Below, in pieces: positions 67 to 4,820 of a DNA stretch of 4,820 bases. This stretch comes from a virus (taxonomy: Duplodnaviria > Heunggongvirae > Uroviricota > Caudoviricetes), in IMG/VR virus record IMGVR_UViG_2713896781_000019. The stretch is one strand, 5' to 3'. The notes beneath the pieces were generated by a model. The model ran no database searches, was not told the origin of the DNA, and saw only the letters and a program-made list of their open reading frames with translations. The first letter of the stretch is position 1. Every line of letters begins with the position of its first letter. A program made the position numbers and the translations under genes.

Positions 67-289
67 GTTGAGAATCGGTGATTCTGTCCATTGGTTTATT
101 CCACCCATAGGTTTTACGCAGAATGGCAAGCAGCACTTTAAACTGTCGCTTGGTCAGATCTGCGCCTGAATAAGCCTCAAGCAGCATATTTGATAGTCTG
201 GCGTAACCATCATCGAGATCTGCCACATTACGCTCCTGTCCGGCAAAGTTACCTCTGCCGAAGTTGAGTATTTTTGCTGTATTTGTCAT
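63..289 (-). pseudogene. O: Lambda-type replication initiator O, truncated after codon 77 by the IS insertion
   Basis: Minus-strand ATG at 287..289. Translation MTNTAKILNFGRGNFAGQERNVADLDDGYARLSNMLLEAYSGADLTKRQFKVLLAILRKTYGWNKPMDRITDSQLSE matches lambda O N-terminus as I recall it. The remaining 11 codons of the 88-aa track ORF are read from IS DNA. The ori iterons and the P-interaction domain are absent. Confidence 0.85.
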
Positions 290-292
290 AAT
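264..292 (+). promoter_or_regulatory. pO promoter for oop RNA (-35 TTGAGT 264..269, 17-nt spacer, -10 CATAAT 287..292)
   Basis: Sigma70-like hexamers with 17-bp spacing on the plus strand, overlapping the O start codon, in the position of lambda pO. Confidence 0.5.
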
Positions 293-298
293 GACTCC

Positions 299-376
299 TG
301 TTGATAGTTCCAGTAATAACCTCAGAATTCCATCTGGATTTGTTCAGAACGCTCGGTTGCCGCCGGGCGTTTTTTA
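299..376 (+). ncRNA. oop: oop-like antisense RNA, complementary to the 3' end of cII mRNA
   Basis: About 77 nt between the pO -10 element and the to terminator, antisense to the cII 3' end, as in lambda. The 5' end is inferred, not mapped. Confidence 0.55.
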
Positions 377-2771: not shown

Positions 2772-3641
2772 ATGAAGAAGATTGATTACAAGTCCATACC
2801 AAAACCAATAGACTCAGCATCAGAGCGAAAAAAACACAAAAAAGAGGCTGAAAAATTAGCAAATTATATCAGTTTTATTAGAAACAATGCTCACGGCGAT
2901 GGCGACAAGAAGTTGCTTTCAGATGCTCGGACCCAAGCGTTCGGTATACTTCGTAAGCAGATGCAATATCGTCTTCATCCTGGCTACATAATTGAAATTC
3001 GCCCTACTGAAAGACAATTGTTCTTATTAAACTCTGTCTTTGACTTTGTAAACGTAGTTGGAGATCTTATCGACAGGTCTGTAGATAAGGATCCTGATAC
3101 AAATAGTTTTCTTCTAACAAATAAAGAATACTTATATGGTAAATTCGGTATAAACGGATGGCAAAAATATGTACGCTTCTTACGTGCATTCGTTGATGCG
3201 TATAAAAATTCCGACATGATTTATACATATTTGCCTGGTGGTGATAATTGTACGCTTTCGGCAGACAATAGAATATTCATACCTGTACTTGGTCTTGGGC
3301 TGATTAATGCAGTAAATGAAAAAGATGTTATAATTGTTAAGCAGTGGCGAAAATATGAGGGATATAGATATCTGCCATGCTTTGATATATTAAAAATACA
3401 GAATAAATTCTATGTAAAAATTAAATATAAAGAAGATATTTTCTTCCTCAGAAAAAACAAAGATCTTTTACAAGAACTTTCTGGTACAATAGATGTCATC
3501 TTAGGTTCTAGGTTTATAAAAGAACTGAAAGAAAGCAGGTCTTTCTCTCGTGTAGAGATAAGCGAGTCAGAGTTATGGGGTATATCAAATAATCCTGTAA
3601 ACCACGCTCACCAACGAAACCCAAACAAAAAGTGGTCATAA
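2772..3641 (+). CDS. Hypothetical protein (289 aa from ATG 2772, or 293 aa from ATG 2760), strongly AT-rich, no recognisable domain; candidate accessory (moron) gene
   Basis: Long ORF with GAGG Shine-Dalgarno at 2763..2766 overlapping the N stop codon, ATG at 2772; the alternative ATG at 2760 overlaps the N stop as ATGA. GC is about 22-35% in sampled 60-nt lines versus about 50% in flanking phage DNA. The protein is Lys/Ile/Asn/Tyr/Phe-rich with no transmembrane segment, Walker A, HExxH or other motif I can recognise. Confidence 0.75.
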   Translation: MKKIDYKSIPKPIDSASERKKHKKEAEKLANYISFIRNNAHGDGDKKLLSDARTQAFGILRKQMQYRLHPGYIIEIRPTERQLFLLNSVFDFVNVVGDLIDRSVDKDPDTNSFLLTNKEYLYGKFGINGWQKYVRFLRAFVDAYKNSDMIYTYLPGGDNCTLSADNRIFIPVLGLGLINAVNEKDVIIVKQWRKYEGYRYLPCFDILKIQNKFYVKIKYKEDIFFLRKNKDLLQELSGTIDVILGSRFIKELKESRSFSRVEISESELWGISNNPVNHAHQRNPNKKWS

Positions 3642-3642
3642 C

Positions 3643-3664
3643 CCGCTCAGGCGGATTTCATTTT
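3643..3664 (+). terminator. Possible weak intrinsic terminator just after the AT-rich gene
   Basis: Short GC stem CCGC/GCGG with 4-nt loop followed by ATTTCATTTT. The stem is only 4 bp. Confidence 0.3.
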
Positions 3665-3693
3665 CACGCAAACAACAGAATAAACACAGCGCT

Positions 3694-3721
3694 GTGTATT
3701 CATTCCAACGAGTGAATACAC
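3694..3721. repeat. Perfect 9-bp inverted repeat GTGTATTCA-N10-TGAATACAC
   Basis: Arms at 3694..3702 and 3713..3721 are exact reverse complements, with no following T-run. Candidate protein-binding palindrome or RNA stem-loop. Confidence 0.6.
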
Positions 3722-3783
3722 GGAGCAATGTCGCTCGTAACTAAACAGGAGCCGACTTGTTCTGATTATTGGAAATCTTCTTT

Positions 3784-3809
3784 GCCCTCCAAGATGAGGG
3801 CGATTTTTT
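3784..3809 (+). terminator. Intrinsic terminator (GCCCTC-loop-GAGGGC plus T6)
   Basis: 6-bp GC-rich stem (3784..3789 / 3796..3801), 6-nt loop, then GATTTTTTAT. Lies about 20 nt upstream of the next ORF's ribosome-binding site, positionally like a tL1-type terminator readable by N-modified polymerase. Confidence 0.65.
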
Positions 3810-3829
3810 ATCTGTGAGGATATGAACAG

Positions 3830-4057
3830 ATGTCAAACATCAAAAAATACATCATTGATTACGACTGGAAAGCATCAATAGAAATTGAAATCGACCATGA
3901 CGTAATGACAGAGGAAAAACTTCACCAGATTAATAATTTCTGGTCAGACTCTGAATACCGACTCAATAAACACGGCTCTGTATTAAATGCTGTATTAATC
4001 ATGCTGGCGCAACATGCTCTGCTTATAGCAATTTCAAGCGACTTAAATGCATGGTAA
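3830..4057 (+). pseudogene. Hypothetical gene interrupted by IS1; only the N-terminal 74 codons are native, the last sense codon and the stop are supplied by IS1
   Basis: ATG at 3830 preceded by GAGGA (3816..3820). The ORF runs straight into the IS1 inverted repeat, which begins at 4053; TAA at 4055..4057 lies inside IS1. Low GC (about 36%). No recognisable homology. Confidence 0.55.
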
Positions 4058-4067
4058 TGACTCCAAC

Positions 4068-4571
4068 TTATTGATAGTGTTTTATGTTCAGATAATGCCC
4101 GATGACTTTGTCATGCAGCTCCACCGATTTTGAGAACGACAGCGACTTCCGTCCCAGCCGTGCCAGGTGCTGCCTCAGATTCAGGTTATGCCGCTCAATT
4201 CGCTGCGTATATCGCTTGCTGATTACGTGCAGCTTTCCCTTCAGGCGGGATTCATACAGCGGCCAGCCATCCGTCATCCATATCACCACGTCAAAGGGTG
4301 ACAGCAGGCTCATAAGACGCCCCAGCGTCGCCATAGTGCGTTCACCGAATACGTGCGCAACAACCATCTTCCGGAGCCTGTCATACGCGTAAAACAGCCA
4401 GCGCTGGCGCGATTTAGCCCCGACATAGCCCCACTGTTCGTCCATTTCCGCGCAGACGATGACGTCACTGCCCTGCTGTATGCGCGAGGTTACCGACTGC
4501 GGCCTGAGTTTTTTAAATGGCGGAAAATCGTGTTGAGGCCAACGCCCATAATGCGGGCGGTTGCCCGGCAT
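4068..4571 (-). CDS. insB: IS1 InsB reading frame (expressed as InsAB' transposase by -1 frameshift)
   Basis: 167-aa ORF with ...[21 protein letters not shown]...[15 protein letters not shown]..., typical IS1 InsB. It overlaps the insA 3' end in the -1 frame, with the slippery run TTTAAAAAAC on the minus strand. Confidence 0.88.
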
Positions 4572-4765
4572 CCAACGCCATTCATGGCCATATCAATGAT
4601 TTTCTGGTGCGTACCGGGTTGAGAAGCGGTGTAAGTGAACTGCAGTTGCCATGTTTTACGGCAGTGAGAGCAGAGATAGCGCTGATGTCCGGCAGTGCTT
4701 TTGCCGTTACGCACCACCCCGTCAGTAGCTGAACAGGAGGGACAGCTGATAGAAACAGAAGCCAC
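4490..4765 (-). CDS. insA: IS1 InsA (91 aa)
   Basis: Translation [91 protein letters not shown], with zinc-finger and HTH regions typical of IS1 InsA; GTG start. Confidence 0.92.
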
Positions 4766-4820
4766 TGGAGCACCTCAAAAACACCATCATACACTAAATC
4801 AGTAAGTTGGCAGCATCACC

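Follow-up and report, generated by a model that had tools for sequence, protein, structure and literature searches.

A probable phage 434 copy of the lambda PreS-tL2a module with a covarying RNA hairpin at the 5′ boundary of the small RNA

The 188-nt spacer at positions 3642-3829 (+ strand) of the stretch analysed here (the window; 4,820 nt from the Caudoviricetes virus record IMGVR_UViG_2713896781_000019), located between an open reading frame (ORF) of 289 aa and the gene ea10, is almost certainly the phage 434 copy of the lambda lpr1/PreS-tL2a module, judging from its sequence. It shows an architecture of three parts, a hairpin, the body of a small RNA (sRNA) and a terminator, which unites the 434 allele with a large family of others, lambda-like as well as P22-like. 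The hairpin very probably acts as RNA of the sense strand, and the overall interpretation, in which the module carries this hairpin as a precursor processing or stability element, is considered probable. The original prediction had noticed a palindrome and a terminator in the spacer, while the 88 nt between them, which it missed, correspond to the body of a known sRNA.

In regard to the identity of this sRNA, Silverman et al. described in lambda an Hfq-dependent sRNA, LPR1, renamed PreS, encoded between ral and ea10 and ending at its 3′ side with the classical terminator tL2a (bioRxiv 10.1101/2024.10.31.621285; the PreS paper is cited as Mol Cell 2025;85:4678 in PMC13392384). According to this preprint, lambda PreS gives northern bands of ~88 and ~68 nt and is enriched with Hfq. 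It is produced in the lytic cycle only, from 10 min, being absent in lysogens and present within 10 min of cI857 inactivation. It base-pairs with dnaN, which is activated, and with alaS, which is repressed, as proven by compensatory mutations, and its deletion reduces phage DNA replication and yield. The ends set by the authors' cloning, T7 and deletion primers (GAGCAATGTCGCTCGTAACT ... GAGGGCGATTTTTTA) place the 434 allele of 88 nt at 3723-3810 (+), equivalent to lambda 34011-33924. The two alleles share 85 of the 88 bases, with all three differences confined to the terminator loop. The seed region, at 3758-3785 (+) according to the authors' primers P970/P971, P838/P839 and P888/P889, is identical in 434 and lambda. 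Within it, 3758-3775 correspond to the 18-nt 'seed' deletion of the authors, and the bases changed in their mutants M1 (dnaN pairing; CTG, 3762-3764) and M2 (alaS pairing; GAA, 3772-3774) are both present, while TGTTCTGATTA (3758-3768) and AAATCTTCTTTG (3773-3784) are exact complements of the Escherichia coli dnaN leader contained in primers P825/P1150. The ~68-nt band of lambda, counted back from the terminator, would position a shorter processed form, PreS-S, at approximately 3743-3810 (+), with its 5′ end in the single-stranded AU-rich stretch GUAACUAAACAGG.

The surroundings of the sRNA agree with this assignment. PreS is encoded on the strand transcribed from pL, flanked by an accessory gene close to N and by ea10; the whole spacer is 100% identical to the phage 434 record, and nearly every base of 3670-3870 aligns with the spacer separating ral and ea10 in lambda, as well as with the HK75 sequence that follows nun. 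In a full-length MAFFT alignment evaluated with RNAalifold, the PreS body displays a conserved 5′ stem (GAGC with GCUC), a covarying second stem and a covarying terminator. A scan of the whole window against Rfam (E<=1) gave only two sub-threshold chance matches, both outside the spacer; as no Rfam 15 model matches the spacer, PreS is apparently unrepresented there.

The terminator forming the 3′ end and U-tail of PreS, tL2a, occupies 3782-3809 (+), just before ea10, as indicated by the terminator scan, by the annotation of the 434 record and by homology. In the scan, 3782-3803 formed a stem with 8 pairs, including 5 G-C, and a 6-nt loop, followed by TTTTTT at 3804-3809, and this 8-pair stem together with the T6 folds at -12.9 kcal/mol, fitting a rho-independent, Hfq-binding 3′ module. 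The intrinsic terminator originally proposed at 3784-3809 is the core of this structure. A terminator is annotated at this place in both the 434 and HK75 records, the Sf6 record labels the homologous site 'homology to phage lambda; tL2A', and a comparison of the lambda-type with the P22-type version shows covarying stems. The scan revealed no other site resembling an intrinsic terminator on the + strand from pL to 3782, and since tL2a is the first one after pL, the immediate-early transcript would comprise N, the 289-aa ORF, the hairpin and PreS. Suppression of tL2a by N in the pL operon is established for lambda, and by analogy tL2a of 434 would represent an N-suppressible stop before ea10. 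The idea that the terminator splits the expression of the two flanking genes by their dependence on N is therefore reasonable, given the homology to tL2a and lambda biology, but in this copy the downstream gene ea10 is cut by the insertion sequence IS1 at 4053.

The palindrome upstream of PreS is built of GTGTATTCA (3694-3702) and TGAATACAC (3713-3721), which are exact reverse complements separated by a gap of 10 nt, and a T-tract is absent from the bases directly following 3721 (GGAGCAATG), just as the first description of a perfect 9-bp repeat had it. A repeat search widened the palindrome to an imperfect helix (3684-3705 with 3710-3731), and as RNA it would form a stem of 13-14 bp (3692/3693-3705 with 3710-3722/3723) closed by the loop CAAC at 3706-3709, the segment 3689-3726 folding at -21.2 kcal/mol. 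Folding of the 188-nt region revealed strong structure on the + strand (z = -5.4; none of 200 shuffles was as good) and a weaker excess on the - strand (z = -2.8). Of the dinucleotide shuffles of the window, 23% contain a perfect inverted repeat of 9 bp with a loop of 3-12 nt (0.31 per shuffle on average), so the palindrome by itself is not beyond chance. It is accepted as real because of its conservation and covariation in related loci, and with its position conserved across 226 loci, the interpretation of a fortuitous inverted repeat can practically be dismissed.

Several local sequences accompany the hairpin on its 5′ side. Right after the stop codon of the 289-aa ORF, at 3642-3665 (+), a small hairpin CCGC-tcag-GCGG is followed by ATTTCATTTTC, a feature common to HK75, and at the equivalent place Sf6, mEp213 and one Salmonella phage carry GGCCG-N6-CGGCC followed by TTTATTTTT. 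With a stem below 5 pairs, this small hairpin escaped the terminator scan; it may act ahead of the PreS hairpin as a stabiliser or as a weak terminator. Furthermore, a C/A-rich stretch, GCAAACAACAGAATAAACACAG, is located at 3668-3690 (+), just 5′ of the hairpin in the lambda/434-type flank, and is missing from HK97-type flanks; we take it to be similar to GcvB-type target or sponge sequences.

The conserved RNA hairpin extends over 3689-3726 (+), with the perfect 9-bp repeat GTGTATTCA-N10-TGAATACAC (3694-3721, +) as its core and an upper stem formed by 3693-3705 with 3710-3722 around the CAAC loop, and it overlaps the first 4 nt of PreS. The palindrome ends at 3721, 2 nt before PreS +1, and the full deletion made by the authors (primer P969) begins directly after it. 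In a first step 12 annotated phages were aligned, and P22 and g341c were found to have a PreS-like body with a hairpin of different sequence at the same upstream position. The comparison was then based on 226 related loci, obtained from two pattern scans of viral contigs and from phage records, all of which carry the PreS 5′ motif. A hairpin is present at the same spot in 226 of these 226 loci, and its stems belong to at least five unrelated sequence families, with left and right arms TGTGTATTCATTC and GAGTGAATACACG in family A, TAATGACCATT and AGTGGTCATTG in family B, TATAGCAGATT and AGTCTGCTATG in family C, TAATGCGGA and TCCGCATTG in family D, and TTATCGACTTTC and GAGAGTCGATAG in family E. 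Family C additionally holds an internal double compensatory change, from GCAGA/TCTGC to GCTGA/TCAGC. Variants with one mismatch were each seen in a single contig (L082, L230, L186 and L240). A further scan of genome contigs (596 Gb) with a 17-base pattern returned mostly chance matches, as roughly predicted, and no new hairpin types.

Because RNAalifold on the full-length MAFFT alignment misaligned the variable hairpin, the hairpin was analysed on a shorter alignment, A3, made with MAFFT from 33 distinct sequences and not fitted to structure, in which both arms stayed in register. Cells in the paired columns of A3 can pair in 94.1% of cases; shuffling lowers this to 69.6% and sliding of the partner column to 24-49%, and both sides have changed in 9 of the 16 pairs. 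The covariation score of 0.569 stands against 0.148 in shuffles, none of 500 reaching it. Read as RNA of the + strand, the arms pair in 94.1% of cells, as RNA of the - strand in 82.4% and as Watson-Crick DNA in 82.0%, the first value being higher because of conserved T·G (U·G) wobbles. The flanking segments GCAC(N)U and G(N)GAGC show sequence conservation and form a lower stem, which reads GCGC-U with G-GAGC in the window, includes PreS +1 and contains a constant purine-A mismatch (3691 with 3724). The A-U, U·G and U-A pairs topping the stem are almost invariant as well. Covariation together with the conserved wobbles argues for selection on pairing in the sense transcript, and thus for an RNA structure and not an operator.

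Both of these roles had been offered for the palindrome at the outset. A DNA operator for a dimeric regulator would be in line with the perfect 9-bp dyad symmetry and its 10-bp spacer. However, the arms have been exchanged for unrelated sequences with their complementarity kept, pairing as DNA (82% of cells) lags behind pairing as sense RNA (94%) owing to the conserved T·G, phages whose repressors differ (434, lambda, 21, HK97, Sf6 and HK75) share the same hairpin, the loop is variable in length, and the type of hairpin is independent of the type of sRNA that follows. An operator is on these grounds very improbable, while the other option, an RNA processing or stability hairpin, fits the covariation.

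The module is distributed as a mosaic unit. Upstream of it stand, depending on the phage, ral, nun, gp45, orf87, the 434 ORF or an insertion sequence element, and downstream ea10, cIII, gene 17 or Sf6 gp33. Blocks of homology start at 3670, 3688 or 3692 and stop just after 3810, that is, after the terminator. Among the 226 loci, hairpin families A-E and the sRNA-body types (lambda, P22 and g341c) occur in many mixed combinations, which points to frequent recombination at the conserved junction G(N)|GAGCAAT. In 70 of 162 distinct contexts the hairpin directly abuts the stop codon of an upstream ORF with a length of 50 codons or more, a layout resembling a 3′ untranslated region (3′ UTR). Of 5426 complete E. 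coli genomes, 2237 (about 41%) gave a match to the element, with as many as 6 copies, and in all 12 E. coli hits that were sampled the RefSeq annotation at the match was 'none'. In a rival reading, the element is no more than a conserved 'boundary sequence' where mosaic segments join, maintained by recombination between lambdoid phages or promoting it, with a hairpin devoid of RNA function. The Sf6 record annotates it as 'bsq4; boundary sequence', the homology blocks begin and end at the same few positions next to many different flanking genes, and hairpin and sRNA-body types are reshuffled. Recombination alone, on the other hand, leaves unexplained why five unrelated pairs of arms are each self-complementary, and likewise the double change in family C, and in lambda the module encodes a functional sRNA. 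We regard a purely recombinational role as improbable.

Two further observations concern this distribution. In the scan of genome contigs, approximately 20 contigs assigned to unrelated taxa (L133-L175; e.g., Pseudoxanthomonas, Shewanella, Bradyrhizobium, Neobacillus, Kitasatospora, Chromatium and Pseudomonas) are 100% identical to lambda at the locus; several of them are short or of low coverage, and contamination of these assemblies with lambda DNA is most likely. PreS homologues of the P22 type (L005, 700-800) and of the g341c type (L009), seen also in many IMG/VR loci, keep the 5′ stem and the core GUUCUG(A/G)UUA, with otherwise altered seeds (…GGUUAUUGGAG or …GGUUAAUCGAAAAAUC), a 13-nt insertion and a different, covarying terminator. 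The altered seeds make other host targets possible, and these homologues may regulate other targets in Salmonella.

According to the mechanism that we consider probable, transcription from pL would pass N and the 289-aa gene into the spacer, where the RNA would first fold the hairpin of 14-18 positions (3689-3726), followed by the 88-nt PreS (3723-3810), whose own GC stem and U6 would constitute tL2a. Polymerases without N modification would stop there and give PreS its Hfq-binding 3′ end, and those modified by N would continue into ea10, cIII and beyond. The 5′ end of PreS would be freed by an endonuclease cutting at the 3′ base of the hairpin, which would be left behind as a 3′ cap protecting the upstream mRNA. 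PreS would then pair through 3758-3785 with the host dnaN leader, activating it, and with alaS, repressing it, thereby aiding phage replication. Whether the hairpin sets the 5′ end of PreS by processing is an evenly balanced question, and the chances that it stabilises the upstream mRNA are likewise about equal in both directions; the two roles are compatible with each other. For the end of the 88-nt form RNase III is slightly favoured, because this end is helical rather than part of an AU-rich single-stranded stretch. For the ~68-nt form, starting in GUAACUAAACAGG, RNase E is favoured, and the stretch is a plausible site for it. RNase E prefers AU-rich single-stranded sites.

The main competitor of excision is a promoter of PreS itself, overlapping the palindrome, with PreS as its primary transcript and the hairpin serving as a 3′ stabiliser or weak stop for the upstream message only. 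A defined 5′ end 2 nt past the palindrome would suit such a promoter, and a fresh polymerase free of N would terminate well at tL2a, thus accounting for the U-tailed 3′ end; moreover, the origin of the PreS 5′ end is not addressed in the preprint of Silverman et al. Against this, no sigma-70-like -35/-10 pair was found on the + strand upstream of PreS, either in the window (near 3660-3722) or in P22, and the would-be -10 falls in the right arm of the hairpin, whose sequence is wholly different among families A-E. The timing of PreS, absent in lysogens and appearing within 10 min of cI857 inactivation, is that of a pL product. The lack of a promoter-like site, the appearance of PreS with pL derepression and the position of tL2a as the first stop favour excision from the pL transcript, and a dedicated promoter is considered unlikely.

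Several points nevertheless weigh against excision at the hairpin. The in vivo rule for RNase III (Altuvia 2018) is that both positions lying between the staggered cuts are base-paired, in most cases including a G-C. For a cut at 3722|3723 the lambda/434-type stem offers U·G and G-C, in agreement with this rule, and types B-E offer a mismatch and U·G, at variance with it. The conserved helix has ~18 positions with 1-2 mismatches, compared to the ~22 bp that RNase III accommodates, and it reaches 22 only with the lambda/434-type left flank. PreS +1 is defined by cloning primers and the ~88-nt northern band, not by mapping at nucleotide resolution. The preprint (bioRxiv 10.1101/2024.10.31.621285) mentions no hairpin, stem or promoter for lpr1, the accessible literature holds nothing on how the 5′ end of PreS forms, and no older literature on lambda pL processing was found. 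Since the search pattern fixed GAGCAAT, covariation cannot be read for the lower stem. The expression of PreS was demonstrated for lambda, the 434 allele being known from its sequence. Finally, a U-tailed 3′ end is not readily explained by N-modified, terminator-resistant polymerases. One rather speculative solution, to which we give only a slim chance, is that the hairpin is an obligatory signal of the RNase III type that excises PreS co-transcriptionally: the cut, ~90 nt before tL2a, would fall between the nutL-bound N complex and the polymerase and could locally weaken antitermination. If so, a set fraction of polymerases would terminate, supplying the U-tail of PreS inside an antiterminated operon, and the cut would set the ratio of PreS to ea10, cIII, kil and red.

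The locus itself is already known, as the sRNA and the terminator are published and the element was flagged earlier as a boundary sequence. It is now explained as a phage sRNA boosting the host sliding clamp (dnaN), with the classical tL2a as its terminator. The covariation of the hairpin adds a modest new structural detail; no description of a covariation-supported hairpin at the PreS 5′ boundary was found in the literature accessible to us, which covered the PreS paper as its preprint. Selection for pairing exactly at the 5′ end of an sRNA points to a defined step in its biogenesis, which we did not find addressed in that literature. If the hairpin is needed for PreS production, it would provide a simple genetic handle separating the function of the sRNA from that of the terminator.

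As a whole, the window belongs to a lambdoid phage of the 434 type and spans its immunity and early-left (pL) region, with the + strand corresponding to the leftward pL transcript. Its gene order, drawn from the ORFs of the window and the annotated phage 434 record OL657226, begins on the - strand with O' (part of O, 23-289), cII (322-615) and cro (735-950), and continues on the + strand with cI(434) (1054-1686), hex (1683-2087), oL/pL (~2140-2220), nutL (2268-2282), N (2440-2763) and the 289-aa ORF (2772-3641), which is located on the same pL transcript upstream of the spacer and ends with the stop codon TAA at 3639-3641, 47 nt before the hairpin. Antisense to the 3′ end of cII, at 289-375 (+), lies the OOP RNA, which the 434 record annotates together with its terminator (stem 346-373); the terminator scan picked up the latter as well. 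Downstream of the spacer, the 5′ part of ea10 (DUF2528) occupies 3816-4052 (+), with the ribosome binding site GAGGA at 3816-3820 and ATG at 3830, and homology to intact loci ends at 4052. A complete IS1 of 768 bp follows at 4053-4820, its terminus being the end of the window; it interrupts ea10 after about codon 74, and the downstream gene is thus a pseudogene in this copy.

No Pfam domain was found in the product of the 289-aa ORF. Its last 14 residues (VNHAHQRNPNKKWS) are those of the C-terminus of the HK75 Nun protein (HK022-type by annotation), and DNA homology to HK75 begins within the 3′ end of the ORF (<=3600, the query start) and runs on through the hairpin and PreS. Nun is an exclusion factor that arrests RNA polymerase. 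The ORF product may be a Nun-like exclusion protein whose domain for targeting RNA or DNA is a different one.

Other phage sRNAs were considered as the identity of the element and set aside. AgvB/AsxR are located at the PR' moron site, HnrS in late genes and EcOnc22-24 (~85 nt) in the tail-gene region of Sp15, and the text of the paper on the Pas sRNAs contains no link to this locus. KilS of the Rac prophage occupies an analogous position, without sequence similarity. This RefSeq sRNA (L280, 7406-7503, - strand, E. coli K-12) lies just 5′ of kilR, and its relative position in the leftward early operon is that of PreS in HK97-type phages (PreS-cIII-kil), with no similarity apparent by eye; this position may be a recurrent home for phage sRNAs. 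In tables of Hfq cross-linking and analysis of cDNA (CRAC) from enterohaemorrhagic E. coli Sakai, ECs1180 is 22nd in the ranking of Hfq-bound coding sequences (CDS). This CDS lies upstream of the Sp5 copy and has no overlap with PreS, and the top-100 intergenic list does not contain the ECs1179-ECs1180 spacer.

Among known systems, lambda PreS is the closest relative, sharing with the 434 allele the pL locus and strand, the position directly upstream of ea10, the same terminator and seed, and the bases pairing with dnaN and alaS. The 434 allele differs by its three substitutions in the terminator loop, its upstream gene encodes the 289-aa protein with a Nun tail and not ral, its ea10 is disrupted by IS1, and it is known as a sequence. 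Likewise, tL2a of 434 resembles that of lambda in its homologous GC stem and U-tract and in its equal distance to the ea10 start. In lambda, tL1 precedes tL2a, whereas in 434 there is no intrinsic-terminator-like site between N and tL2a.

In regard to processing, DicF of the dicB operon in the Qin prophage is also an Hfq-dependent sRNA embedded in a lambdoid early operon, and work attributed to Faubladier et al. in 1990 is said to have shown that RNase III and RNase E release it endonucleolytically from a polycistronic transcript; it has no sequence similarity to PreS and its targets differ (ftsZ and others). RNase III hairpins are also found in the lambda pL transcript itself (the N leader, and sib downstream of int), where cleavage controls the expression or stability of neighbouring genes. 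The PreS hairpin is located in the same operon, and the 5′ end of PreS would lie inside a helix as for an RNase III product, but its helix is shorter (~18 positions), the rule for the cut pairs agrees with the lambda-type stem only, and cleavage is a candidate event. Comparable 3′-UTR-derived, RNase E-processed Hfq sRNAs are those of the CpxQ/SroC type. Like them, PreS shares its terminator with the upstream mRNA, often starts after a stop codon and has a shorter processed form; unlike them, it has a covarying hairpin exactly at its 5′ boundary, and the end of its 88-nt form lies outside an AU-rich single strand. Finally, bsq4 of Sf6 (NC_005344) is the same DNA element, although its annotation as a recombination landmark predates the sRNA and is silent on RNA structure.

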